Program-made: the position numbers and the translations under genes | Assembly (NCBI GenBank): GCA_038882955.1 | Contig: JAVZNC010000001.1 | Coordinates: forward strand, 224,001-288,000 | From: Candidatus Bathyarchaeia archaeon | GTDB taxonomy: Archaea > Thermoproteota > Bathyarchaeia > Bathyarchaeales > Bathycorpusculaceae | Reading direction: 5' to 3' | Length of the DNA: 64,000 nucleotides | The notes under the pieces: generated by a model | Told to the model about the DNA's origin: nothing | What the model saw: the letters and a program-made list of their open reading frames with translations, nothing else | Databases searched by the model: none | Shown: positions 1,217-12,863 of the stretch, piece after piece | Layout: every line of letters begins with the position of its first letter | Numbering within the stretch: position 1 is the stretch's first letter

Positions 1217-1528
1217 TTAAATTGCCGGGGTGGCCGAACGGTTCAGGCGGCTGCCTGCAGAGCAGCTATATGTGGGTTCAACTCCCACCCCCGGCTTATC
1301 AACCATGAATGGCGCATTTACGTCTTTTCTGTTCCCAGTTACTGTTCCCATTGTTCCCTTCTCTGTTCCCTCTCCTAGCGTTTGTGCGTTTGTGTTGAGT
1401 TTTTCAGTTACCGTATGCTTCATGAACACTCGTTTTCCATTCTGCCACGTGTAATGCACCACTCTTTGACTTTTGCCTCTAACTTCAAGAACACCTATCT
1501 GACCGCAAACTGGACACGTTACCTTCAT
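1217..1528 (-). CDS. Integrase N-terminal fragment (CPVC zinc-ribbon-like start), running through attL
   Basis: Ends ...PGVGVEPTYSCS, the same peptide in the same frame that begins the C-terminal fragment at attR. Confidence 0.85.
   Translation of the reverse strand: MKVTCPVCGQIGVLEVRGKSQRVVHYTWQNGKRVFMKHTVTEKLNTNAQTLGEGTEKGTMGTVTGNRKDVNAPFMVDKPGVGVEPTYSCSAGSRLNRSATPAI
1224..1296 (+). tRNA. tRNA-Cys(GCA), intact; integration target
   Basis: Acceptor GCCGGGG/CCCCGGC; anticodon stem GCTGC/GCAGC with loop CT-GCA-GA; T-arm GTGGG-TTCAACT-CCCAC; discriminator U; no encoded CCA. Confidence 0.96.
1260..1296 (+). repeat. attL, 37-bp direct repeat (3' half of tRNA-Cys)
   Basis: GAGCAGCTATATGTGGGTTCAACTCCCACCCCCGGCT, identical to 7537-7573. 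Confidence 0.96.
1369..1399. repeat. 31-bp direct repeat, copy 1 (identical copy at 4111-4141; degenerate copy at 1539-1569)
   Basis: CCTCTCCTAGCGTTTGTGCGTTTGTGTTGAG; encodes LNTNAQTLGE on the minus strand. Confidence 0.92.
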
Positions 1529-2238
1529 GAATTAATCACCCCCTCAAGGCGTTGTACGTTAGTGTTGAGCTTTTCGCTTTTCTTTTTCTCTAATTCCGTC
1601 AGCACCTTTAACATTAACGGCTTGAAAAACGTTCTTCTCCACGTTTCATATTCTGGCTTCTTGTTTGCACATTCACTGCTCACTTCATACCAGAAACGCA
1701 GTCCTCTACCACGTCTTCTTCCCTCAACCGTATGCATGTCAAAAGCCTCATTCGGTATCTCCTCAAGATTCACCATGATATTTCTCAACTCCATGTTCTC
1801 TGGATATTTCCGCGCTGTATCAATCAGCTCTAAGAACTCATCTGCACGCCTATCCTTCGGCGCTTCCGCCAAGATTAATGCTGCCAGACAAATGCAACGT
1901 TTACAGTCCCAACTCAGTTCTTTCTCGCCTCGACCTTTAAATTCCAAGAATTTTCTGTAAAGCGTCTCAACAGCGTTAATCGCCCACGGCTGACCGACAT
2001 CTTCATCGGCTATTACTCTTAATCTTCTCCATGCCATGTACCAGTTCTGTTCCGCCAGCTTTAACGCGTAATACATCGCCTTCGCCGACAACCCTTTTCT
2101 TATGCTTTTTTGCAACGCACTTTTCAACAATGATTGCTCTTCGGTTTCTTTCTGGCTTTTCAGCTTCTCTATCTCTTGACCGAACAAGTCGACTTGTTTT
2201 CCTTTAGCGTTTCCACTAACCTCTTTTTCTTTTATCAT
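1525..2238 (-). CDS. Stand-alone MgsA/RarA C-terminal-domain-like protein (no AAA+ domain)
   Basis: KSALQKSIRKG..AMYYA..WRRLRVIADEDVG resembles MgsA SAxxKSIR..RRLxxxAxEDIG; IPxxAxDxHTxxGRxxGRG motif; no Walker A. Confidence 0.72.
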   Translation of the reverse strand: MIKEKEVSGNAKGKQVDLFGQEIEKLKSQKETEEQSLLKSALQKSIRKGLSAKAMYYALKLAEQNWYMAWRRLRVIADEDVGQPWAINAVETLYRKFLEFKGRGEKELSWDCKRCICLAALILAEAPKDRRADEFLELIDTARKYPENMELRNIMVNLEEIPNEAFDMHTVEGRRRGRGLRFWYEVSSECANKKPEYETWRRTFFKPLMLKVLTELEKKKSEKLNTNVQRLEGVINS

Positions 2239-2287
2239 AACTTAACCCCCTTTCTTGTTTTTTACGATATGAGATATGCTTCTGTTC

Positions 2288-2303
2288 TTTTATAAGACTT
2301 TCG
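2288..2303 (-). promoter_or_regulatory. Putative BRE-TATA promoter for the MgsA-like gene and integrase
   Basis: Minus strand CGAAAGTCTTATAAAA about 50 nt upstream of the ATG at 2238. Confidence 0.55.
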
Positions 2304-2381
2304 ACCTATTTCTGAGTCCCATTTCACTTTTCCGCCGAGAAAAAAGGAGGAACTGAAGCGTTCTCTTCTGCTCTCTCTTTC

Positions 2382-2852
2382 TCACGGCTCATAGACGTTG
2401 AACACCAACGTAAAGCTGTACGGCGTTCCACATGTCGCACCGTTCTCTGTTAGCGTAATGTTCACTGGTACTTGATTGTTTGAACTCACATATAGACCGT
2501 ACGCTGTTTCATCCCACTTTTCCCACTGATTGCCGACGTACCGCCAAATCTCAAGAATCCAGACGCCTGGAAAGTCTTCAGTCGTCCATTTCACGTAGCC
2601 ATTCATCGTTCCCGTATACACAAGAAGCGCCTCTAACGTTTTGTTCTGCCCTCTTGAAACGTATTCGCCCCAATCGTAGCTCAAAATCCTAGTGCTATTT
2701 TCTCTGAAGCGTAGCTCAATCTGATAACTCGCCTTTAACGTCATCTGGTTCGGTATCTTCTCTTGATACATCAAATTGCCAACCGCGTAAACAACTCCAA
2801 CCACCAAGACGAGCAGAAGCGCAGCCGTTTTCAAACTAATCGTTTTCGCCAT
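2382..2852 (-). CDS. Secreted or membrane-anchored beta-rich protein
   Basis: N-terminal hydrophobic helix (AALLLVLVVGVVYA), alternating beta pattern, NxS/T sequons, GGAGG SD upstream. Confidence 0.75.
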   Translation of the reverse strand: MAKTISLKTAALLLVLVVGVVYAVGNLMYQEKIPNQMTLKASYQIELRFRENSTRILSYDWGEYVSRGQNKTLEALLVYTGTMNGYVKWTTEDFPGVWILEIWRYVGNQWEKWDETAYGLYVSSNNQVPVNITLTENGATCGTPYSFTLVFNVYEP

Positions 2853-3390
2853 CTTCCTCCTTCCTTTTTGTTAGAAGTTGAATTTTCTCTTTGCCTTTTA
2901 TATGTCTTCTTTTCGGCTTCTTTCGGCAAACTCTCCTCTAAAAACGCTCTATTCTACCTTACACCGCCAAGAAAGGCTCAACTGAGCTTTTCTCCTCTGC
3001 CTCGTACAGCTCGAAACAGTTAACTGCAAACCGCCTCGACATAAAACGGTATAAATCCCCTATCGGCTCTCTGTCTCGTGTAATCTGGTTGCTCCCATGA
3101 ACAAACATCGCTTATCCCAGCTTTTCTGTTCCCATCTGGACTGCAGATTCTATGTCTCCAGCCGTTCCCATCTTTAAACGTCAACACCTCTCTTTAAACA
3201 CTTCATTTCATGATGTTCAACGCCAAAGCAACTGCACCAATCTCTGTACTGCTGAAGTGGTTTCACCGTGTGTTTTTCGTGTTCGTAGGCGTTTAAAACG
3301 GGCTTTTTTTCTGTATTTTTTCTCCATGAACCGCGCTTTTCTTAACCCTCAAAAACCGCATTTTCATACATAAAATTTATCGGCTCATAT

Positions 3391-3702
3391 TTACTCTGCT
3401 GGAATCCACTCATCACTGCGATATTCTGTGTCTGTGAGCAGTTTCCTCATGAATCGTTCGGCTAATAGTTTTCCTTTATCGGCGGACTCACGTTTTAACT
3501 GTTCTTCACGTTTCCTCATCTCTTCCTTCTTCGCTTCTTCACCAAGATGTTTTTTCAGCAACCACTCAATTAGCCTCGACAAATTAGTTCCCTCCTTCTT
3601 CGCCTGCTCTTTCGCTTCTTCATGAAGCAAAGCGTCTAACGTAATCGACACCAGCTTTCTCCTTCTCTGTTCTTCTAAACTGACGGTGCCTTCTGGACAC
3701 AT
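3391..3702 (-). CDS. Ribbon-helix-helix DNA-binding protein with coiled-coil tail
   Basis: RKLVSITLD..LHEEAKEQAKKEGTNLSRLIEWLL is a CopG/RHH pattern. Confidence 0.75.
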   Translation of the reverse strand: MCPEGTVSLEEQRRRKLVSITLDALLHEEAKEQAKKEGTNLSRLIEWLLKKHLGEEAKKEEMRKREEQLKRESADKGKLLAERFMRKLLTDTEYRSDEWIPAE

Positions 3703-4103
3703 CGTTCTCCAACCTCATACAAAACTTCCAAGAACTGCTCCATAAACCTTTCTTTAGCCCGCTCAATTTCCCGCTGCCTATCTACGCTGCCCACTACTAT
3801 TGTTTTTACGCCATGCCATCTTAACATAGCTTCGCTCATTGCATCCCAACAGTCTTTTGTAACAACCAAGATTTTCATCGGACAGTTTGAACTAAATCTT
3901 TCTATCACGTTTTCATGCAGCCATTTTGCGCTTACAAACTTTGTTCTTCTTAATCGCTTGGCTTCTAGCTCGAAAAGTCCATCAAAGAAATCTATTCTAC
4001 CGCAAGTGTCCCATGTTAAATCTTTTACTCCAAACTCTTTAAGCCACTCAAGAATCAACAGCTCCAGTTTTAGCCCGACTTTCCGCCAAATCCACTTCTT
4101 CAT
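3675..4103 (-). CDS. Putative PD-(D/E)xK nuclease
   Basis: Upstream helical E, then GRIDF...ELEAKR (D...ExK spacing). Confidence 0.6.
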   Translation of the reverse strand: MKKWIWRKVGLKLELLILEWLKEFGVKDLTWDTCGRIDFFDGLFELEAKRLRRTKFVSAKWLHENVIERFSSNCPMKILVVTKDCWDAMSEAMLRWHGVKTIVVGSVDRQREIERAKERFMEQFLEVLYEVGERCVQKAPSV

Positions 4104-4897
4104 TCTTCATCCTCTCCTAGCGTTTGTGCGTTTGTGTTGAGGTGTTGCAGTTTTTTCCACAGCCATCGGTAATATCGTACCAGCTCTGGGTTGCACTTTA
4201 ACTCCGTTGCGATTTCACTGTTGCTGCATCCTTTCGAGAAAAGTTCAAAGGCTTTTTGGCGCTTACTGTCTTTATCAATCGCTTTTCCTCTCCGCCCCAT
4301 CTCTTCACCTTTCACACCATCAAGAACAAATTTATCAACGTCAAGATGTGCCGCATTTGTCCAGTTAAACCATGCAGTCGCTCTTCTCTCCTCTAGGGCT
4401 CTGTAAAAGTATTCACCTTCCTTTTTCGTCAGTTCAAACGTCAAACTTGTCGGCAGCGCTTGTGGTTTCTGCGAAACAATCACGGCTAACGTATCGTTAG
4501 CTCTTCCGTAACTGCTAACCAGACATTCCATTGCATTCTTGCTCTTTGTCGACAACCAAGAAGGGGCATCTTCAATTACGACAATACTGTGCTTCAGCTT
4601 CTCCAAATGAGGCGGTATCAAATTGGACGTTCTAACATGAAAGTTTCCAGCGCCTAACTGTTTTTCGTAAATCTGAAGCGTGTCTTCAAGCTTGAACTGT
4701 CTAATCCAGATGTAGACTGGTCTCTTTTCAATCTGCAGCAACTCTTTAACCATAATCGCCGTAAACGTTGACTTTCCACTACCCATAACACCACGGACAG
4801 AAATCGTTAATCTACACGGCTCAAACGCAACATTTTTAAGCAAAAAACAACTCAACTTTAACACGGGCGTCCTTTCCGACATCTTAATCAACTCCAA
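4100..4897 (-). CDS. P-loop ATPase (FtsK/HerA/A32/Zot-like) with C-terminal HTH
   Basis: Walker A GVMGSGKST, Walker B IVVIED, GR...LAVIVSQ (Arg finger/sensor); HTH GCSNSEIATELKCNPELVRYY. Confidence 0.75.
   Translation of the reverse strand: MELIKMSERTPVLKLSCFLLKNVAFEPCRLTISVRGVMGSGKSTFTAIMVKELLQIEKRPVYIWIRQFKLEDTLQIYEKQLGAGNFHVRTSNLIPPHLEKLKHSIVVIEDAPSWLSTKSKNAMECLVSSYGRANDTLAVIVSQKPQALPTSLTFELTKKEGEYFYRALEERRATAWFNWTNAAHLDVDKFVLDGVKGEEMGRRGKAIDKDSKRQKAFELFSKGCSNSEIATELKCNPELVRYYRWLWKKLQHLNTNAQTLGEDEE
4111..4141. repeat. 31-bp direct repeat, copy 2
   Basis: Identical to 1369-1399. Confidence 0.92.
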
Positions 4898-4927
4898 TCC
4901 CGCCTTCTTCCATACGCCCCAACCCCC

Positions 4928-5125
4928 TTAGTTTGTTTTTAGCTCTCGTACGCACTGTAAAATTTCATCTTTGCTAAGTGTTTTTAGCTTCTCCAGCCCA
5001 AATCGGAAAATTAAATCTGTAAACTTCATCCAGCCTATTTCTCGGTAAAATTTTTCATGAAAAATACGCCTAGCCTCATAATACGCCGATAGGCAAACCT
5101 TTACTGATTTACTTGCGAACATCAC
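4928..5125 (-). CDS. Small hypothetical protein, possibly RHH-like
   Basis: Overlaps the upstream gene in the element's operon; beta-alpha-alpha pattern. Confidence 0.55.
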   Translation of the reverse strand: MMFASKSVKVCLSAYYEARRIFHEKFYREIGWMKFTDLIFRFGLEKLKTLSKDEILQCVRELKTN

Positions 5126-5561
5126 GCATCGCCTCTTCCTTAAGCCACTTAACCAGATACCTGCTTTTTTCAGCGTATGGCACGCGCGGGTCTCCCATGA
5201 TTACAGTCCAAAACGGCTTTTGCGCTTCCTTCTTCCTTTGAGGTTTCAGTTTCTTGGGCGGATACTTACCCGTACGCGCAGCTTCAAGCGCTGGCTCTAA
5301 AAACTTCACTTCTTCCTTAGCGCATTCGTCGAGATAATTCAAAAACTTAATCAGTTCTCGCCATTCATCGTCTGTTTTATCAATCTGCTCCATCGTGACA
5401 AAAGGCTGCTTCTTAGGTCTATTAGGCTTAACAGACTCACGCTTCTCTAAAGACTTAGGTTTTTCGATTTTTGCCAGCTCCCACACGCCCGTCAACGGAT
5501 TGCGACATAAATGAACTTCTCCGTTTTCCGTCTGAACTTTAACAATAAGCGCCTCCTTCAT
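5109..5561 (-). CDS. Hypothetical basic protein
   Basis: ATGA overlap with the upstream ORF, GGAGG SD. Confidence 0.7.
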   Translation of the reverse strand: MKEALIVKVQTENGEVHLCRNPLTGVWELAKIEKPKSLEKRESVKPNRPKKQPFVTMEQIDKTDDEWRELIKFLNYLDECAKEEVKFLEPALEAARTGKYPPKKLKPQRKKEAQKPFWTVIMGDPRVPYAEKSRYLVKWLKEEAMRDVRK

Positions 5562-6013
5562 CTACACGCCTCCAGCAGTTTTTTCGGTTTCCAATCTCCG
5601 CAGCGCACTCCTCTTTCAAAATCACGCATATTGCCGAAAAACCCATGAATCTCACAATAGGGCTGAAGTCCGTAATTCACAATCGCTCCGCTTGGCATCT
5701 TATAACTGTGCTCTTTCTCTGAAAAGCGTTTGCATCCTTCACATGAAAAAACTCCATCGCACACAATTGCCAGAACTCTTTTAACGTGACTCACTGCATC
5801 CGAATCTGAAACCAACCTTATCAGTCCTTGACTTTCAAGAATTTTTGCCAGCGGAAGCTCCTGCTCCTTAACGTAATACCCGTAAGGATTACCTTTCACA
5901 GCTTTCAAGAAGCAAACAGCTTCACCAAAAGTCGGTTTATAGGATTCGGCTTGCTCCACAACTTCCGCTTTTTCACTCTTTCTTCGCAGAAACTTGAACA
6001 ACCTCAACATCAC
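5558..6013 (-). CDS. Hypothetical protein, possible winged helix plus Cys/His zinc site
   Basis: LESQGLIRL wing-like motif; CEGC...CEIH...C; GAGGTG SD. Confidence 0.68.
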   Translation of the reverse strand: MMLRLFKFLRRKSEKAEVVEQAESYKPTFGEAVCFLKAVKGNPYGYYVKEQELPLAKILESQGLIRLVSDSDAVSHVKRVLAIVCDGVFSCEGCKRFSEKEHSYKMPSGAIVNYGLQPYCEIHGFFGNMRDFERGVRCGDWKPKKLLEACR

Positions 6014-6179
6014 CTCTTAAAGCAGCCTCCATGAACGCCATCATAAACTCGACAGCGAACTCGACAAATCGGCTTTTATTCGCGAATCCATACTTTTTAC
6101 AGAATTCATCCAGCCTTACTTGAACGCCCTCGTCAATCGTGAAAGTTGAAAGTTTCCTAACTCTAAACGGCGGCGTCAC
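5973..6179 (-). CDS. CopG-like ribbon-helix-helix protein
   Basis: STFTID..VRLDEFCKKYG..NKSRFVEFAV. Confidence 0.72.
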   Translation of the reverse strand: MTPPFRVRKLSTFTIDEGVQVRLDEFCKKYGFANKSRFVEFAVEFMMAFMEAALRGDVEVVQVSAKKE

Positions 6180-6427
6180 CGAGACCTCCCTCGCCTAGTT
6201 ATTAGAAAAACTGCACCGTACAATTCTTGACCTTTAACCTTACCCGCTAAAACTTCCTTGATGAGTTTGTCTGATTGGTCTAAACCTTTCGTTTGAATCC
6301 GCCGTAAAACCGTCTTGAAGTCATCTCCAACATCGCAAATAACCTCGTTTGATACCTTCGGCTGCTCGGCTTTAGGAACATTGCTAACCATTCGCCGTAC
6401 ACGTTTATAATCTTCGCCGTATGTCAT
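6176..6427 (-). CDS. Hypothetical protein, first gene of the element's main operon
   Basis: GGTGA SD and BRE-TATA upstream; GTGA overlap with the next gene. Confidence 0.7.
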   Translation of the reverse strand: MTYGEDYKRVRRMVSNVPKAEQPKVSNEVICDVGDDFKTVLRRIQTKGLDQSDKLIKEVLAGKVKGQELYGAVFLITRRGRSR

Positions 6428-6458
6428 TTTTTCACCATATTATTTAAATACATTTGTC

Positions 6459-6474
6459 TTTAATAAAGTTTTCG
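6459..6474 (-). promoter_or_regulatory. Putative BRE-TATA promoter of the element's main operon
   Basis: Minus strand CGAAAAC-TTTATTAAA. Confidence 0.6.
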
Positions 6475-6518
6475 TTTCGCTTCGTTCTTAGCTATGGTCT
6501 TTTGATGATACCTCGTAT

Positions 6519-7573
6519 TTACTCGAAAATGCGTAACCACCTCTCCTCATAAGGTTTTAGAACTTCCAAGATTTTGCTGAACCATTTCTTTAGGTCTGCC
6601 GAGAAATAGTGTTTGCCGAAAATGCTGCTCGGTGCTCTTCCTTGCGTTAAGTCAACTATTTCACTCGGTATTCCTTTTTCCGCCAAGATTGTCCCGTGCA
6701 TTTTTCTCAGTCGATAAGTCCAGCACGGCAACCCTTTGCATCTTAACCGTGAACGAATCAAATCCCAGCTTATGCGCTCCTTTCGCCTATGCCACTCATC
6801 GAGAAACTGCAGCATCCTCTCTGAAACAGGTGTCACATAACATTTTTTCGTCATCCTCATGAAATGCTTATCCGTCGCATGAACCAAACAGCCTAAATCT
6901 GGGCTATAATATCCTTCTAAACCTTCTCGGCTAATTTTATTCAACGCGTAAATCCACTCACCCGTTCTCAAACCACTCAAGAAACCAAACGCCAAACCGT
7001 TCCAAACGTTCCAACCAAGATTTGCGCTCTTACATCGCTCCATCCACGCTTCCGTCTCCGCCACTAAACTCGAACGATTCAACAGCCAACCGAAAACGTC
7101 ACATCCGTTCCAATGATTCCACTTAACACCAGCCTCTTCCAACCAACGCTTCATCTCACTGTAACAACCAAGAAACTTGCTCAGCAGAATTAGCAGCGCC
7201 TTCCCGTTATTACCCTTCACCGCCACATCCAAGAAACGCCCAGTCTGAAGCAGCGCCCAATCATTACGCAAACGCTTCAACATCTCACGCCGATAACTCT
7301 CCGCATAACCCCTCTGCTCAAGCCACCAAGAAAAACGCAGCACAAACGCATCGTCAATATGCTCACGGTATGCCTCAATATGCCTATTTTCCCGCCCCGA
7401 CCAAAAACCGCACTGAAAAGACGGCAAAACTGAAGCGGAAACAGCTAAAGACGACACAACAGAAACGGAATCACAGTTATATAAACGATAACTGCTTTGT
7501 TCATGAAGGGAAGGAACGGAAACCGTAGGTGTCTGTGAGCAGCTATATGTGGGTTCAACTCCCACCCCCGGCT
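6519..7573 (-). CDS. Tyrosine integrase C-terminal (catalytic) fragment, SSV1/pTN3-like
   Basis: SGLRTGE (R), TKK (K), YRLRK, QGR, KHYF (Y); reading frame passes through attR. Confidence 0.9.
7537..7573 (+). repeat. attR, duplicated 3' half of tRNA-Cys
   Basis: Identical to 1260-1296. Confidence 0.96.
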
Positions 7574-7645
7574 CTACCTTCTATTCACAGAAATCTTGGT
7601 TCTGAGTATGACATTGAAAAAGGAAAAGAGCGTCTACATTTCTAA

Positions 7646-8044
7646 GTGAATGCAAATTTTGGATATGAATCTTGGATTCATAACCCTAATTACTTGTTCA
7701 ATCTTTTAAGTATTCGAAGTGAGTGTGAGAATTTGCCTTTATGGCATGAAATTGAGGATTTGCAGAAGAAAAAGGCTGAGTTGGAGTTTCAGCTTCATTC
7801 GATTGAAGAGAAAGAGAAAACCCTCGAAGAGAGAGCGAGGCTACTGGAGGAGAAATTTGCGATTCAGCAGTTGGAAGAGAAACTTAAAATTAAGATGGAA
7901 ACTGTGGAGAAGCTTGAGGCTCGGATAAGCGAGTTGGAGCAGAAACTTAAACGCGAAACAGAAACCGCTGTAACGATGAGAATTGAGCCGCAGGCGCAGC
8001 AAAACACGAATGAATCTCCGCTGCGAAGACTCTTTGAAGAATAA
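7646..8044 (+). CDS. Coiled-coil hypothetical protein (true start probably near 7732)
   Basis: Long E/K/L heptad pattern; lies outside attR. Confidence 0.7.
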   Translation: MNANFGYESWIHNPNYLFNLLSIRSECENLPLWHEIEDLQKKKAELEFQLHSIEEKEKTLEERARLLEEKFAIQQLEEKLKIKMETVEKLEARISELEQKLKRETETAVTMRIEPQAQQNTNESPLRRLFEE

Positions 8045-8140
8045 CAAAAAGCTCTAAGTCTCATAGCGCTAGTTGCCTTCACGAGAGATAGGGTGATTAT
8101 TGCACTTTATAGAACAAATCTCTATAATAATGTTCTATAA

Positions 8141-8719
8141 TTAAACAAGTGACCCAAAAATTTCTTGTGCCGCCTTTTTATAAATTTCAAAATCCTGCTT
8201 CGAAAACAGAACGAGTACAACCTCTTCGAGTTTATCCTCCCTTTCGACAAACTCCTTTATAGTCGCCAACGCTACTTTACACGCCTTCTCTATAGGATAT
8301 CCGTATGCACCCGTGCTTATTGATGGAAAGGCTATTGTCTTCAATCCTTTTGAAACAGCTAACATTAGCGAGTTGCGGTAGGCTTCAGCCAAAAGTTCTG
8401 GTTCGCCGTGGGTTCCACCGCGCCAAATAGGGCCAACGGTGTGGATGATGTATTTAGCTTTTAGGTTTCCTCCAGAGGTTATAACCGCCTTTCCCGTCGG
8501 AAGTCCGTTTGGCCATTCTGTTGCCCTTATGCGTTTGCATTCTTCTAGGATTTTTGGTCCGCCTTTGCGGTGTATTGCGCCGTCGACGCCTCCGCCCCCC
8601 ATGAGTGTCGTGTTTGCCGCGTTTACTATTGCATCTGTGTCCATCTCTGTTATGTCGCCTTGAACAAGGCAGATTTTTGTCTTACCAATTTTGAAAGATA
8701 CAGACATTGTTATCCACAA
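8141..8719 (-). CDS. Macro-domain O-acetyl-ADP-ribose deacetylase (YmdB-like)
   Basis: GDIT, NAAN..LMGGGGVDGAIH, FPSISTGAYGYP. Confidence 0.92.
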   Translation of the reverse strand: MWITMSVSFKIGKTKICLVQGDITEMDTDAIVNAANTTLMGGGGVDGAIHRKGGPKILEECKRIRATEWPNGLPTGKAVITSGGNLKAKYIIHTVGPIWRGGTHGEPELLAEAYRNSLMLAVSKGLKTIAFPSISTGAYGYPIEKACKVALATIKEFVEREDKLEEVVLVLFSKQDFEIYKKAAQEIFGSLV

Positions 8720-8858
8720 TATCTTTTCATCAAAAATTTGCTTAAAATTTTAATCCTAAACCCAGAGAATAAAGGACTGTCATAAGACTCATAAGACTTT
8801 GGTTTTTAAGTTTAAATATGCCTTTTACTGAAAACTACATAGGAGTGGTTATAGAATC

Positions 8859-9159
8859 TTGAAACGCGATCTGCTGAAAAGTTACTTCTGGGGATTTGTT
8901 ACAGGTTCAGGAATTACAAGTTTAATTCTTCTTATATACTTAAGAGCTGTATTCCAAATCCAAATAATTGGACCCGCCCACTCCGATTACGGTTGGGTAA
9001 CTTTTATTCTTGGAATAGAGCATCCTAATGGTTACTGGTATAACAGTATGGTTGGATAATACAACTACCTTTATAGTTTTAGCAGTCTTTGTGATTTTCT
9101 TTAGCATACTCCTCAGCATAATAACATTTAAAGAGAGTAAGCCGCGGGAAATTAATTAA
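8859..9159 (+). pseudogene. Small membrane protein with an apparent +1 frameshift near 9018
   Basis: Hydrophobic frame continues in +1 as SILMVTGITVWLDNTTTFIVLAVFVIFFSILLSIITFKESKPREIN* to 9159. Confidence 0.55.
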
Positions 9160-9219
9160 AAAAGTTGAGTAAACATCTATTCTGTGGTGGTTTTTAAAGA
9201 TTGTTTGGGTTAAAAATTT

Positions 9220-9984
9220 TTAGTATGTATATTTGTCTCCTCCAGCGAGTATGCGCTCCAAAGCCATGTTAAAGTTTATCATTCCATCATTTGTTTTGGC
9301 GGAAATTGGAATTAAGAGGAATTTTAGGCCAAGTTGGTGTATTGCACGCATCATGTTTCTGCTCAACAGACGCTTCGTACCCTCAAGTTTTTGTTCAATT
9401 GCGTCTTCCAGCGCAGCAGGATTGGCGGACCAGTCGACAATTTTGTCAACTTCGTCCTTTGGAAGTATGTCGCATTTTGAGAGTAAATGGACTTGTGGTA
9501 AGAGAAAACGGTTGTAAACGGCTGCTGAAAGGAAAAGATTGGACACGTAGTTGAGTGGGGTAGCGCAGAAGGCGGCATCAAAAAGGTATACTATGGCTTT
9601 TGGCTGTTCCCGTAATAACTCATTGGCAATGAAAGGCCCGCTTGCCCTAAAAGCGAAAAGCTCCATTTGCCCAGGCGTGTCAACAACGACGACGTCGGAT
9701 TTCAAGTCTTCAATTTCGCTTGAAATCTTTTCAATTTCATCCGCGATTAGGTCTGCGGCCATTATCAAGGCTCCATTTGGGCCTAACTCGTATTGTTCCA
9801 TGAGGCTTTCTATGCTTATGTAGTCGCGTACGTCAACATCAGGCGTGTATGGAAGCGTCAACGCTCCTGGGTCAAGGTTTACTATTGCAACGTCTTGTTT
9901 TGCCATTCTTAGCCATTCGCTGAATGATGCGGTAAGCATGGATTTTCCAGAGCCGGCTGTTCCAATAATGAAAACTGTAAACAT
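9220..9984 (-). CDS. GPN-loop GTPase
   Basis: GTAGSGKS, NLDPG, LGPNG, DTPGQMELF. Confidence 0.92.
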   Translation of the reverse strand: MFTVFIIGTAGSGKSMLTASFSEWLRMAKQDVAIVNLDPGALTLPYTPDVDVRDYISIESLMEQYELGPNGALIMAADLIADEIEKISSEIEDLKSDVVVVDTPGQMELFAFRASGPFIANELLREQPKAIVYLFDAAFCATPLNYVSNLFLSAAVYNRFLLPQVHLLSKCDILPKDEVDKIVDWSANPAALEDAIEQKLEGTKRLLSRNMMRAIHQLGLKFLLIPISAKTNDGMINFNMALERILAGGDKYTY

Positions 9985-10056
9985 GCTGCTGTGCCTCTTT
10001 TTAGCGTGTGTCTTGTTGATTTAGCATTATCAGATTTACTTTGGACTGTAAAAGTT

Positions 10057-11193
10057 TTATGTTGGAACTTCTGGTGGCGGCGGTGGTATTGGCTCTTGAG
10101 GTGCGGGCGTTGTTCGCCGTGATATCAAGAAAATCGCACAGCCGACCACCGTTAATGTTATTGTGAAAGCCAGCAGTACAAAGAAGAATGGCGACAGAAC
10201 TGTGATGGCTATCGTTGGGCTGTCTGCTCCGCCATAATCATTGTCTCCAAACCAGCTTGCGCGGACAAAACATACACCCGTCGTGTTCGCGGTCCAAACG
10301 TATGAAAATTCACCGTTGGCGTTTGTTGTAGCCGTTCCCAAAACAAGCCATTGTAAGCCGCCAACCCGCAAGTAAATCGTTACTGTTTCGCCCGAAAGGC
10401 TTGGAGATAATCTTCCAGAAATTGTAACAGTGCTTCCTTCTATAGCGAATGGTGATGAGACTGCCAGTGAAAGGGCTGACGATTCTAACGGCTTGTAACT
10501 TGCTGAAACTTGCCCAAACTTTGTTTGGTCACAGTTCTCAAGTGTGATAACTTTTGTCGTGTTTAACGTTGGAATTAGGTCTGGAGGGCATTCGCCGACA
10601 CGCCAGCTATCGAATAAGGAGCCTCCTGTGCATTCTGCTATGTAATATCTTTTATCGTTTAATGTAACGTAGCAAACTGTGCCTCTGGCGTCACGTGGCA
10701 CATGAGAGAGGCTTACGCCCACGTTCATGTGAAATTGATTTTCATAGTAGAGCAGGACGACGTCTAATCCGCCAGCCATCATGATTGACGCTGCCATATA
10801 AGAGAAGACGTCGCAGTCTCCAATGTTTTCAACAATTGTTTCTACTGGGTATTTTGCGCCGCTTTCGTTATATGGTATTTGATGCACAATCATAAGCACG
10901 CCGTTAGCGAAATCTTCATCGTCACCGTAAATGTCCCAGAGGCGTTCGGCAATTGGTGCCACTGGGTATGGTGTTACAAATTTTGGAAAATCGCTTATCG
11001 AAGTTAGTTGGTGGCTCTGCGACTTGTAAAAATCATAGAGGGACTGCTGGACAGTGACCGTTAAAAGGTAATGCGTGGAACCGTTTGGGTGATTTAAGAT
11101 TTGATATGTTCTAGCTGTTTGGGAGAAGGAATAAGGTGTTAAATAGGAAATTACGATTAAAACTGTGAGCGCGATTATGGCAAGTTTTTTCAT
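10057..11193 (-). CDS. Membrane-anchored transglutaminase-like cysteine protease with Ig-like domain
   Basis: Signal peptide; YPVET..GDCD, HMNVGV, YYIAECT (C-H-E); C-terminal TM and Pro-rich tail. Confidence 0.75.
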   Translation of the reverse strand: MKKLAIIALTVLIVISYLTPYSFSQTARTYQILNHPNGSTHYLLTVTVQQSLYDFYKSQSHQLTSISDFPKFVTPYPVAPIAERLWDIYGDDEDFANGVLMIVHQIPYNESGAKYPVETIVENIGDCDVFSYMAASIMMAGGLDVVLLYYENQFHMNVGVSLSHVPRDARGTVCYVTLNDKRYYIAECTGGSLFDSWRVGECPPDLIPTLNTTKVITLENCDQTKFGQVSASYKPLESSALSLAVSSPFAIEGSTVTISGRLSPSLSGETVTIYLRVGGLQWLVLGTATTNANGEFSYVWTANTTGVCFVRASWFGDNDYGGADSPTIAITVLSPFFFVLLAFTITLTVVGCAIFLISRRTTPAPQEPIPPPPPEVPT

Positions 11194-11250: not shown

Positions 11251-12036
11251 TTAAATCTCTACTAATGTTTTCTGTCTCTTACTGAAAATGCATGCATAAG
11301 CGTAACCAGTTCTTTTTGCAAGAACTAGCGCCTCTTTGAAATTTCTACCTAAATCTTCTGGGTTGTGCGCGTCCGAACCGAAAACTATTGGCACATCATA
11401 AGCGTGAAGTATTTTCAGTAATTCCTCGCTTGGATAGATTTCTGCGCATGGTCTCCTTAATCCAGCAGTGTTAATCTCCACACACATTTTTGATTTTGCG
11501 ATTGCCTCCGATGTTTCAATTAAAATATCAGAGAAATCGCAGTTCGGCTTAAATCCGAAAATTTTAATGAGGTCTAAATGTGCCACAACATCAAAGAGGC
11601 GGGAACCACACATTTCTTTAATTAGGCTAAAGTACGCTCTATAGGTTTGCAGAATATCTCTTTTCAAGTATTCATGTTTTTGATGTGGGTTGTCAATTCC
11701 CCAACTGCCAATAAAGTGAACTGCGCCGATAACATAGTCAAAAGGGTATTTCTGGATAAACTCTTTGATTCTGTCTTTGTCTTCTGGGAAAAAATCAATT
11801 TCAACGCCCAGTTTTATTGATGTTTCGTCCCTTTGTTTTAGCGCTAGAAAATTTTCGATGTAAGCTGGCATTTGCTGCTGACGCATACGTGAATAATTGC
11901 CTATTTCATGTAGCGATATGTGGTCTGAAAAGCCTATTTCGTCTATTCCCTTTTCCACTGCTTTCTTAACATAATCCTTAATTGTGCCCACCGCATCTGG
12001 CGAAGCTTCTGTGTGCACATGATAATCCATAATCAT
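11251..12036 (-). CDS. Histidinol-phosphatase, HisJ/PHP family
   Basis: DYHVHT, FSDH, EINTAGLR, GSDAH. Confidence 0.88.
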   Translation of the reverse strand: MIMDYHVHTEASPDAVGTIKDYVKKAVEKGIDEIGFSDHISLHEIGNYSRMRQQQMPAYIENFLALKQRDETSIKLGVEIDFFPEDKDRIKEFIQKYPFDYVIGAVHFIGSWGIDNPHQKHEYLKRDILQTYRAYFSLIKEMCGSRLFDVVAHLDLIKIFGFKPNCDFSDILIETSEAIAKSKMCVEINTAGLRRPCAEIYPSEELLKILHAYDVPIVFGSDAHNPEDLGRNFKEALVLAKRTGYAYACIFSKRQKTLVEI

Positions 12037-12863
12037 TGTTTTGCCAGCTTTTGCGTTAAAACCACTTTTCCGCCTTCTTTCTTCACGAGTTCGGACAGCT
12101 GAATTAATGCTTTTCCAACACGGTCTTTGGCTGTTTTGGAATCCTTCGCTGTTGTTGAGAAGTGAAGTTCAATTTGCGGTTTTTTCTCCTCGCCCTTCGG
12201 ATGAGACTTGATGTAGACGTGGGGATTATCATGCATGGTTCTGTCAATTAAAGGTGCCAAAGCTGACTCCATAATACCACTCACATAAATGCTCGCCTCG
12301 TAAAAAGTAACTTCTCCAGCCTTCTTCCTCAGCAATGGCATAACAGAATCTTCAAAAATAGCCTCCATCTCCGAGGGAACCCCCGGCAAGGCTATAAGGA
12401 CCGTCTCATTAACCTCCAAAATTACGCCAGGGGCTGTTCCAACGGGATTCGGCAGCGGCTGCGACTTTTCTGGGAGCCTAGCCATTTTAACCCTTGCTGG
12501 TGTGAGCTCCACTTTTTCGATTTTTCCAGTTTTCATGTACGCCTCATACTTTTCCCTAACCATTTCCAAGGCTTTCTCGTTAATTTCCAACTTTAGATTT
12601 AGCGCTTCAGCTATTCCTTCGAGAGTTTTGTCGTCAAATGTTGGTCCTAAACCACCAGTCGTTATTATGAATATTGGTTTGCGTTGTAAGGCTTCACGTA
12701 TGACGCCTGCAATGGCTGCCACGTCATCTTCAACAACTGTTATGCGTTTAACTGTGAATCCAGCTGTAGTTGCGCGCTTGGCAAGCCATTGAGCGTTTGT
12801 GTTTAACGTTTTACCGATAAGCAACTCATTGCCTACGCAGATTATCTCCATCTCATTGCCCAT
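12033..12863 (-). CDS. CinA-like molybdopterin-binding-domain protein
   Basis: VGNELLIG, TGGLGPTFDDKT, LPGVPSEM. Confidence 0.88.
   Translation of the reverse strand: MGNEMEIICVGNELLIGKTLNTNAQWLAKRATTAGFTVKRITVVEDDVAAIAGVIREALQRKPIFIITTGGLGPTFDDKTLEGIAEALNLKLEINEKALEMVREKYEAYMKTGKIEKVELTPARVKMARLPEKSQPLPNPVGTAPGVILEVNETVLIALPGVPSEMEAIFEDSVMPLLRKKAGEVTFYEASIYVSGIMESALAPLIDRTMHDNPHVYIKSHPKGEEKKPQIELHFSTTAKDSKTAKDRVGKALIQLSELVKKEGGKVVLTQKLAKQ

Follow-up and report, generated by a model that had tools for sequence, protein, structure and literature searches.

In fuselloviruses (SSV1, SSV2, SSV-RH) and in the Thermococcales plasmid families pTN3 and pT26-2, an integrase of the PF16795 family harbours the attachment site of the circular form (attP) inside its own gene, which is cut into an N-terminal and a C-terminal part, Int(N) and Int(C), when the element inserts in a tRNA gene. 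According to the available sections of PMC8371274, a 'suicidal' integrase that has been split in this way cannot excise its element unless an intact copy acts in trans. In Thaumarchaeota, small integrated elements have been grouped as cryptic integrated elements (CIE), a catch-all class without signature genes, whose smallest member measures 2.6 kb in the part of the survey at hand (Krupovic et al. 2019, PMC6563490). Here, we describe an element of 6,277 bp with the split-integrase layout, integrated at a tRNA-Cys gene of a Candidatus Bathyarchaeia archaeon (assembly GCA_038882955.1). It lies between positions 1260 and 7573 of the window, as we call the whole 64,000-nucleotide stretch of contig JAVZNC010000001.1 (224,001 to 288,000) that was analysed. 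We take it for a small plasmid-like element whose integrated copy looks intact and which belongs to an undescribed family of hot-spring Bathyarchaeia known almost only from metagenomes, a reading that we consider probable though by no means secured.

Beyond its integrase, the element appears to match no described family that could be tested here. The preliminary description of the locus, made from the letters alone, had recognised no known family in the gene set and has been borne out in this respect. Blastn of the whole element found no match in PLSDB or in INPHARED (50,697 virus records), tblastn of its ATPase, p265, found none in either collection, and the catalytic part of the integrase matched SSV integrases only. 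With fuselloviruses, no common gene besides the integrase was detected by whole-element blastn and ATPase tblastn, the only comparisons made. Their small major capsid proteins, of the VP1/VP3 type and marked by two hydrophobic helices, are not in the element as judged from a hydrophobicity scan, Pfam and PHROGs, and the matching SSV records measure 14.6–17.6 kb against 6.3 kb here. The attachment (att) repeats count 37 nt in the element and 41–44 nt in its relatives, compared with 40–50 bp for SSV-type integrases in the available sections of PMC8371274. As for pTN3 and pT26-2, the likeness concerns the type of integrase, and PLSDB has no plasmid matched by the element, its ATPase or Int(C). 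The host is a further difference, Bathyarchaeia having no mention in the available text of a 2021 review of archaeal tyrosine recombinases.

The likeness to CIE is one of general build. In the sections of PMC6563490 at hand, these elements are likewise small, equipped with an integrase and att sites, often inserted in tRNA genes and rich in ribbon-helix-helix (RHH) and (winged) helix-turn-helix ((w)HTH) proteins, and many of them have no identifiable replication initiator (Rep). On that account, Thaumarchaeota already provide the general kind: small, cryptic and integrated, with no Rep that can be identified. One of them, NitEve-E3, even shares the split SSV1-like integrase, but it encodes an MCM, which is absent here (PMC6563490, same sections). 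Whereas CIE are described there as lacking signature genes, the elements presented below have a fixed gene order and hallmark genes for an ATPase-HTH protein and a protein with the C-terminal domain of MgsA (MgsA_C), and it is by this description that they are set apart. The one study of bathyarchaeial mobile elements that we found (PMC10848311) concerns large viruses, which are head-tailed or filamentous, with one spindle-shaped; its examined text contains nothing that resembles the element. Similarly, we found no paper on small plasmid-like or integrative elements of Bathyarchaeia, a listing in supplementary tables being possible.

The boundaries of the element are defined by a perfect direct repeat. 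The target, a tRNA-Cys(GCA) gene on the plus strand (1224–1296; ARAGORN, and Rfam RF00005 with 60.7 bits), contributes its 3′ part to the first 37-nt att copy (attL, 1260–1296), which recurs with 100% identity at 7537–7573; the start-to-start spacing of 6277 delimits the 6,277-bp unit. In the second copy, Rfam still recognises the leftover 3′ end of the tRNA as a tmRNA/tRNA-like fragment (7549–7565). Int(N) is encoded on the minus strand at 1260–1528, starts with a CxxC zinc-ribbon-like part and belongs to an open reading frame (ORF, 1217–1528) that extends antisense through tRNA-Cys to 1217. Int(C), also on the minus strand (6519–7536; ORF 6519–7565, with the second att copy at its 5′ end), comprises the catalytic part and matches PF16795 (Phage_integr_3) with 31.3 bits and E 2.4e-7 for a curated cut-off of 27; a genome-wide PF16795 scan gave 32.5 bits, again above the cut-off. 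Rejoining both parts, from 1528 down to 1260 and then from 7536 down to 6519, yields 1287 nt or 428 codons whose sole stop is terminal, and such an open frame strongly supports the boundaries from within the sequence itself. One att copy falls in the Int(N) frame and the other in the Int(C) frame, which places the attachment site within the integrase gene. The 37-bp repeats at tRNA-Cys and the 6,277-bp circle of the preliminary description are thus exact, and so is its count of 11 genes on one strand with the reconstituted integrase included.

By its PF16795 domain and the att site inside its gene, the integrase is a member of the SSV-type suicidal family, with a predicted recombination activity. 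Int(C) matches the SSV1-type integrase structures 3uxu, 4dks and 3vcf, and the C-terminal ...GR...HY block aligns with 3uxu. Residues R200, K240, R287, R310 and Y320 are invariant across 5 aligned sequences and may each be assigned a catalytic role. In INPHARED, Int(C) retrieved only integrases of Sulfolobus spindle-shaped viruses (6 of the 50,697 virus records), with ∼30% identity over 36% of the length; no match was obtained among the PLSDB plasmid records.

The minus strand carries all long ORFs between the att repeats, and the 11 genes, the two integrase pieces counted as one, are all open with starts that overlap or are closely packed. Intergenic gaps of 538 nt (2853–3390), 143 nt (2239–2381) and 91 nt (6428–6518) fit the arrangement in about three transcription units that had been proposed at the outset. 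The GC content (0.42–0.47) equals that of the flanks, and GC skew is negative throughout the element, as expected from a single coding strand.

The element is not a singleton. A scan of metagenome contigs of the Joint Genome Institute (JGI) for relatives of p265 provided 14 loci, in which tblastn with the 12 window ORFs as queries detected the ATPase 14 times, the RHH protein p103 8 times, the nuclease p142 7 times, Int(C) 6 times, Int(N) 5 times, the MgsA_C protein p237 3 times and p83 twice. The matched genes occur in the same order in all loci, and ORF clustering agrees, p103 being recovered in 6 of the 8 related loci that were clustered. A homologue of Int(N) adjoins a tRNA in L017, L018, L020, L021 and L022; L018 and L020 have the same tblastn statistics, att repeat and spacing, as do L021 and L022, and each pair was taken as one element. 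Three complete relatives emerged: L020 (5,929 bp, 44-nt att, tRNA-Glu), L022 (6,372 bp, 44-nt att, tRNA-Thr(TGT)) and L017 (11,885 bp, 41-nt att, a 105-nt tRNA with a 31-nt insert). The four complete elements use different tRNA genes, and in all three relatives the integrase halves rejoin in frame, giving 399 aa in L020, 402 aa in L022 and 391 aa in L017. The gene order of the family reads Int(C), F2, F10, F4, F5, F6, F1 (ATPase), F3 (nuclease), F7 (RHH), a variable slot, F13, F12 (MgsA_C) and Int(N). In the window, p68, p150 and p65 have the positions and similar sizes of F10, F5 and F6, with a homology that is weak or undetectable.

The larger size of L017 is due to its variable slot, which holds ∼6.3 kb of cargo, hence L017 would be a cargo-carrying version and about 6 kb the base state of the family. 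At 5196–10350 on the plus strand, this cargo comprises a 395-aa nuclease-like protein with an HSDR_N domain and a 951-aa methyltransferase of the N6_Mtase/Eco57I type, which together form a restriction-modification pair, and between their genes a 301-aa ORF of no clear family. With complete relatives of 5,929 and 6,372 bp and a third that is enlarged by added cargo, the element does not look like the deletion remnant of a larger known one, an origin that would have spoken against the preliminary description; the loci rather seem to make up a coherent, previously undescribed family with a fixed gene order. L017 differs in its integration site as well: its target tRNA (11966–12070, plus strand; 42.5 bits in Rfam, missed by ARAGORN) has the same orientation as the integrase, in contrast to the other elements, and its att corresponds to the 41 nt at the tRNA 5′ end.

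One further locus, L030, comes from a Bathyarchaeia metagenome-assembled genome of the same family as the host (G439 by contig position). It combines a p237 homologue, Int(N) and a tRNA-Gly; neither Int(C) nor an ATPase nor an att repeat could be found there, and host genes begin ∼4.7 kb upstream, so that it looks like a decayed relative. Beside the p237 homologue, at 6532–8291 on the plus strand, a coding region is composed of at least 6 tandem copies with a period of 156 nt and has no Pfam match.

p265 (4100–4897, minus strand), the product of the family's hallmark gene (F1), is a P-loop ATPase with a C-terminal HTH. The family alignment displays a Walker A motif GSGKST (GxxGSGKST), a Walker B motif VVIED and, after it, a conserved Arg and Gln. 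In Pfam, the C-terminal three-helix HTH matches Terminase_5 (E 8e-4, just under the cut-off), HTH_38 and GerE, and phrog_1889 follows at 0.011. An AlphaFold2 (AF2) model based on 13 sequences reached a mean predicted local distance difference test score (pLDDT) of 76. When compared with the PDB by Foldseek, it retrieved RecA, the helicase domain of T7 gp4, RadA and KaiC at the top (E 3.5e-7 to 9e-6, TMq 0.36–0.45), the region behind these matches being about residues 30–200. In BFVD, RecA-like entries are near the top, with a 'DNA primase/helicase' at rank 2 and a 'DnaB-like helicase' at ranks 15 and 18, while a DnaA fragment, Zot, FtsK-like and packaging ATPases occupy lower ranks. Judged from the model, p265 is probably an ASCE (additional strand, conserved E) P-loop ATPase whose shape is closest to helicase cores of the superfamily 4 (SF4)/RecA type. 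It is not clearly FtsK/HerA-like, and the earlier label to that effect finds little support: DUF87 gives only a P-loop match at E 0.065, and RecA, T7 gp4 and KaiC come first among structural neighbours. With phage SF4/RepA-like helicases and RecA/RadA/KaiC, the modelled protein appears to share the fold, the Walker A and B motifs and the conserved Arg and Gln. Compared with SF4 helicases, it is smaller (a core of ∼170 residues), has neither a primase nor an N-terminal helicase domain and is fused to the HTH, with template modelling (TM) scores of 0.36–0.45.

Because its model resembles the ATPase domains of phage SF4 and primase-helicase proteins, p265 may tentatively be regarded as a credible candidate replication protein. 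The initial statement that the element has no recognisable Rep consequently holds at the level of sequence families and is qualified at the level of structure. Searches of Pfam, PHROGs, NCBIfam and PADLOC with the ORFs of the element revealed no family of capsid, primase, MCM, Orc1, rolling-circle Rep, conjugation or defence proteins, which for primase, MCM, rolling-circle Rep and capsid repeats what had been seen by eye. HUH Rep, Rep_trans and Rep-Arvir/DUF7845 gave no Pfam, PHROG or NCBIfam match at E up to 1 among 12 ORFs. In Rep-Arvir proteins (DUF7845), catalytic residues extend to about position 410 in the available text of PMC13107129, and here no ORF except the integrase reaches ∼410 aa. 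A rolling-circle replicon was rejected, there being no Rep family among the ORFs, and a pleolipovirus-like element as well, in view of the lack of large spike or membrane proteins. A ParA-type partition system was also ruled out, as the Walker A of p265 is not of the deviant type and no CbiA/ParA/MinD match was found in Pfam. In the public annotation, the ATPase gene (P0001, 228 aa) lacks 37 N-terminal residues of the 265-aa ORF, and by arithmetic its start falls on a Met within the region of Walker A. Since relatives align upstream of the P0001 start, translation more likely begins with the longer ORF or at the ATG of residue 6.

Relatives of p265 are scarce. A profile search of 1.84 billion representative proteins returned 129 matches at E ≤0.001, of which about two dozen are full-length relatives of 230–290 aa; the remainder match the HTH part alone, often as repeats. 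The protein has 12 related clusters with 50–71% identity, all metagenomic and unnamed or 'hypothetical'. No member of the family was found in IMG/VR, nor by a pattern scan of 185,579 GTDB species genomes, and among 401 genomes sampled from the class only the window's own contains one.

Several observations weigh against our reading of the locus as a plasmid-like element. The integrase is split, and the host genome (1.54 Mb in 31 contigs, 95.6% completeness), in which the element is single-copy, contains no second PF16795 gene to excise it. Of the three listed sequencing runs, one, a hot-springs metagenome that may be the source, holds the stretch, no RNA data set is listed as a holder, and none of the assembled contigs joins across the element or shows an attP or attB junction. 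Four of the 11 window proteins (p156, p150, p65 and p68) have no demonstrable homologue in the relatives. The noncoding candidate for an origin, the 538-nt stretch at 2853–3390 between the RHH and cargo genes, contains no convincing ORF (only 49 and 55 aa), has no Rfam match and gave short weak repeats only in a hunt for origins; no origin was identified, and to call it one would be a guess. The classification of p265 is unsettled, with TM scores of only ∼0.4 and Pfam AAA (PF00004, best 5.4e-8), which is not a RecA-type family, in 7 of the 23 family members; single members match IstB or KaiC. Its tie to replication consists of a likeness in fold and the absence of another candidate, and its small-terminase-like HTH would equally fit a packaging or regulatory role. 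Finally, a family that is so rare leaves its success as a replicon unproven.

The first two of these observations, as well as the single copy, would be expected from a trapped relic that integrated once, cannot excise and persists as an inert, possibly decaying island, given that suicidal integrases require an intact copy in trans (PMC8371274, available sections) and that L030 looks like a decayed relative. Such a fate seems rather improbable for the element as it stands: all of its 11 genes are open and tightly packed, its att copies are still 100% identical, and the integrase halves rejoin without a stop here and in the three other complete elements. Besides, a search of 3 same-genus genomes did not detect it; in two of them the contig breaks off at or near tRNA-Cys, with a different integrase at the end of the G003 contig, and this points to recent and ongoing traffic at the site.

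The integrase type and the HTH of p265 also bring to mind a satellite or defective provirus that spreads in the particles of a helper virus, for instance a spindle-shaped one, with the ATPase-HTH acting in packaging or hijacking and the integrase giving a resting place. This we judge unlikely. The integrase is of the fusellovirus type and has SSV integrases as its only named relatives, no capsid gene is present, the HTH resembles those of terminase small subunits (Terminase_5, phrog_1889), and distant stand-alone MgsA_C proteins occur in tailed viruses (10 IMG/VR loci and three Arthrobacter phages). Against these features, no helper is known, and the ATPase family has no member in IMG/VR or INPHARED. 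None of the 18 CRISPR spacers of the host matches the element or its relatives either, the longest match being 16 nt. pSSVx and pSSVi are small Sulfolobus satellite plasmids that such an element would resemble. To our knowledge, satellites of this kind carry a pRN-type replicase, which is absent here, and this is a further argument against a satellite. Within the cargo of L017, a 75-aa ORF with two hydrophobic helices (4883–5110, plus strand) was noticed, and this is the general shape of spindle-virus capsid proteins in the available text of PMC10848311; it is found in only one of the four complete elements.

The second hallmark protein, p237 (1525–2238, minus strand), consists of a C-terminal MgsA/RarA domain. 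In its 237 aa there is no P-loop, and the AAA+ ATPase module of RarA is missing. Residues 54–150 align with positions 7–97 of PF12002 at E 3.4e-3, and a profile made with 26 relatives matches five MgsA-type structures over both conserved blocks, with E values from 1.5e-8 to 5e-3 (2r9g 1.5e-8, 8g28 6.5e-7, 3pvs 5e-3). The orphan MgsA C-domain that had been proposed for this gene is hence well founded. With MgsA, RarA and WRNIP1, p237 shares the C-terminal domain only, and the host offers no RarA to pair with it: a PF12002 scan of the genome detected no full-length RarA and p237 as the only match. A RarA split into p265 and p237 was ruled out, as the ATPase gene does not adjoin that of p237 and p265 has no match of the RFC/RarA type. 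The protein has 41 related clusters, many of them named RarA by JGI, and two NCBI entries from 'Candidatus Bathyarchaeia archaeon'; its profile occurs in 9 of 151 genomes from the family of the host, one of the 9 being the window's own. Elsewhere, stand-alone MgsA_C domains of ∼160–200 aa, with 28–35% identity to p237, are present on 10 tailed-virus contigs of IMG/VR, and the two of these contigs that were examined carry terminase or portal genes. The domain also stands alone in three Arthrobacter phages (KellEzio, Kitkat and BeatusComedenti; five records) and on three bacterial megaplasmid records (Bradyrhizobium). These viral and plasmid proteins are annotated as 'AAA-ATPase' or 'ATPase' despite the missing ATPase part.

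Downstream of the ATPase gene, and overlapping its stop, starts the gene of p142 (3675–4103, minus strand; F3), followed by that of p103 (3391–3702, minus strand; F7). The structural neighbours of p142 in the Atlas are Mrr_cat, Card1_endonuc and related nuclease families (TM 0.59–0.68), and a D...ExK motif is present in 5 of the 6 aligned sequences from this slot, the sixth, from L017, being an unrelated protein. These results agree with the PD-(D/E)xK nuclease initially suspected and assign p142 to the restriction-endonuclease fold. p103, whose C-terminal tail is conserved, belongs to the RHH proteins; it matches DUF6364 (7e-6), CcdA (2e-3), CopG_antitoxin (5e-3) and the Arc-like phrog_3180 (5e-8), and its family profile matches the AvtR and CopG structures, with ParG at E 0.23 only. 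A hit to MCM6_C (E 0.32) is noise. ATPase, nuclease and RHH genes overlap or adjoin, and their order is the same in all 5 distinct relatives with the nuclease (L020, L022, L019, L023 and L026). An operon of this composition, with an RHH protein that resembles antitoxin families and with a restriction-modification pair showing in L017 that defence genes travel on the family, could be imagined as the main function of a minimal integrative carrier of an anti-virus or toxin-antitoxin-like module. We hold this to be very unlikely. PADLOC returned no significant match for 10 proteins (only mad8 on the P-loop, E 0.008, 13.7 bits), L017 keeps the ATPase and RHH genes in order with a different protein in place of the nuclease, and a defence role would leave the other conserved small DNA-binding proteins, four or five in number, without an explanation.

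Returning to the plasmid-like element that we favour, its life cycle can be outlined as follows. The 6,277-bp circle entered the genome by recombination between attP, inside its integrase gene, and the 3′ part of tRNA-Cys, which divided that gene into Int(N) and Int(C). On excision, the 428-aa integrase gene would be re-formed in a ring of 11 co-oriented genes, which may replicate as an episome. In that state, the ATPase-HTH p265 could act as an origin-binding initiator, a helicase or a helicase loader, assisted by the small DNA-binding proteins, and p237 may provide a link to the host replisome. The nuclease-RHH pair would either process replication intermediates or stabilise the element. Spread from cell to cell would need a helper virus, vesicles or another outside route, because neither capsid nor conjugation genes are present. 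As the integrase of this copy is split, its excision would require a related intact integrase in trans, and in a genome with no second PF16795 gene the copy may be trapped for now. Mobility and episomal replication are both inferred. A bolder proposal, which is possible and yet doubtful, is that of a new replicon type, in which a minimal, SF4-like ATPase of the RecA fold, joined to an HTH that binds the origin, would cooperate with a stand-alone RarA C-domain that couples it to the host replisome, a restriction-fold nuclease and a repeated motif as binding site. With the element, a self-replicating integrative mini-plasmid family of Bathyarchaeia would then have its first complete genomic representative.

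The repeated motif is a 36-nt sequence (repeat family D1) with three copies, found in the element only and on the coding strand only. One lies at the 3′ end of the ATPase gene and ends with GGAGAGG just upstream of the nuclease start (4111–4146, minus strand); a diverged copy (72%) lies at the 3′ end of the p237 gene, just upstream of the Int(N) start (1539–1574, minus strand); and a third is inside Int(N) after the zinc-ribbon-like part (1369–1404, minus strand). Two copies have an exact 23-mer in common, for 0 expected by chance. Copies end in a purine-rich GGAGAGG or GGGGG a few bases 5′ of a start codon. In the relatives (L017, L020, L022 and partial loci), the motif occupies the same places in two sequence variants, and some elements carry both. 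It may be a shared regulatory or protein-binding site placed before the nuclease-RHH and integrase genes. The motif is always translated in the same frame, as L-N-T/I-N; two of the three frames being open, this shared frame proves little, and a role at the peptide level is possible. A scan for sigma-70 promoters and terminators gave results at or below shuffled expectation, with models that are not applicable to archaea.

Sediments and hot springs count Bathyarchaeia among their most abundant archaea, and the family extends the suicidal SSV-type integrases to this group. Its core is compact and syntenic and has a recognisable cargo slot, occupied in one relative by genes that include the restriction-modification pair, and the family offers two protein families worth biochemical study: the very rare ATPase-HTH and the stand-alone MgsA/RarA C-domain, which recurs on viruses and plasmids of both domains. 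If the replication module is indeed new, it would represent a new class of replicon in the archaeal mobilome, and its 6-kb backbone with a defined cargo slot could serve for vectors in a major archaeal class that is genetically intractable. Small circular elements of 3–12 kb have been proposed as starting material for shuttle vectors in the available sections of PMC6563490.

The remaining genes encode small proteins. p151 (5558–6013, minus strand) is a member of family F4 (hhalign probability 95.6%, E 1.3e-8), with a winged-helix-like N-terminal part and a Cys-rich C-terminal part; its Atlas neighbours are MarR, HxlR and PadR winged HTH proteins at TM 0.36–0.47, which is a lead only. p83 (6176–6427, minus strand) is a short member of F2 by tblastn and ORF clustering, with tblastn matches in L026 and L029 and relatives of ∼135 aa that have a coiled-coil N-terminus. 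For p156, p65, p150, p151 and p68, tblastn gave no match in the 14 loci. Besides p103, for which the RHH assignment is clear, the preliminary description had counted one or two more RHH proteins, and these could not be confirmed. p68 (5973–6179, minus strand), at the F10 position, is a possible RHH protein with weak matches only (hhalign to F10 23%, E 8.7e-4; phrog_30638 at 7.7e-3), and p65 (4928–5125, minus strand), at the F6 position, has no similarity to F6 detectable by hhalign. p150 (5109–5561, minus strand), with lysine-rich linkers, stands at the F5 position; it has no family match in Pfam, PHROGs, PADLOC or NCBIfam, and its hhalign comparison with F5 was not significant. Searched against the PDB, the profiles of F10, F6 and F4 returned only designed repeat proteins or E values above 0.2, and an AF2 model of F5 from 8 sequences (pLDDT 57, predicted TM score (pTM) 0.20) was unusable. 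In the variable slot, p156 (2382–2852, minus strand) is a cargo ORFan without relatives among 70 candidates, preceded by an AT-rich box of its own and a site that resembles GGAGG. Its residues 1–19 are hydrophobic, and they form the one hydrophobic segment in a scan of the 16 plus-oriented ORFs of at least 45 aa of the element, in line with the secreted protein that had been predicted.

Regarding the host, no relative of the element at the DNA level was found in the 60 nearest genomes. The GPN-loop GTPase encoded in the window shares 76% identity with its counterpart in the L030 genome, compared with 44–47% for those of two MAGs labelled Nitrososphaeria, and the host was accordingly placed in Bathyarchaeia. 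The only CRISPR array found in the genome (G000:C6:150–1354, at a contig end) has a 30-nt repeat and 18 spacers of 36–38 nt, which were compared with the element and the fetched related loci. Two DNA matches of ∼35 nt in G001 were considered as possible spacers; they are not in repeat arrays and were taken as chance. In the metagenome assembly, loose contig ends that follow the tRNA (1297/1298) are unlike the right flank of the window, and the mean word depth was 31–33 for contigs of the element and 40–49 for flank contigs, a contig depth that is not a copy number. No empty integration site could be shown in relatives, the G001 and G003 contigs ending at or near tRNA-Cys. In the same-genus genome G001 (L005, C22), the contig ends inside the tRNA-Cys gene. 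In G003 (L012, C4 1–636), what follows tRNA-Cys is the 3′ end (168 aa) of another tyrosine integrase, of the classical type and unsplit; the contig ends 563 nt past the tRNA, and the right flank is present in a different context. The tRNA-Cys site looks like a hot spot for unrelated elements, which breaks assemblies.

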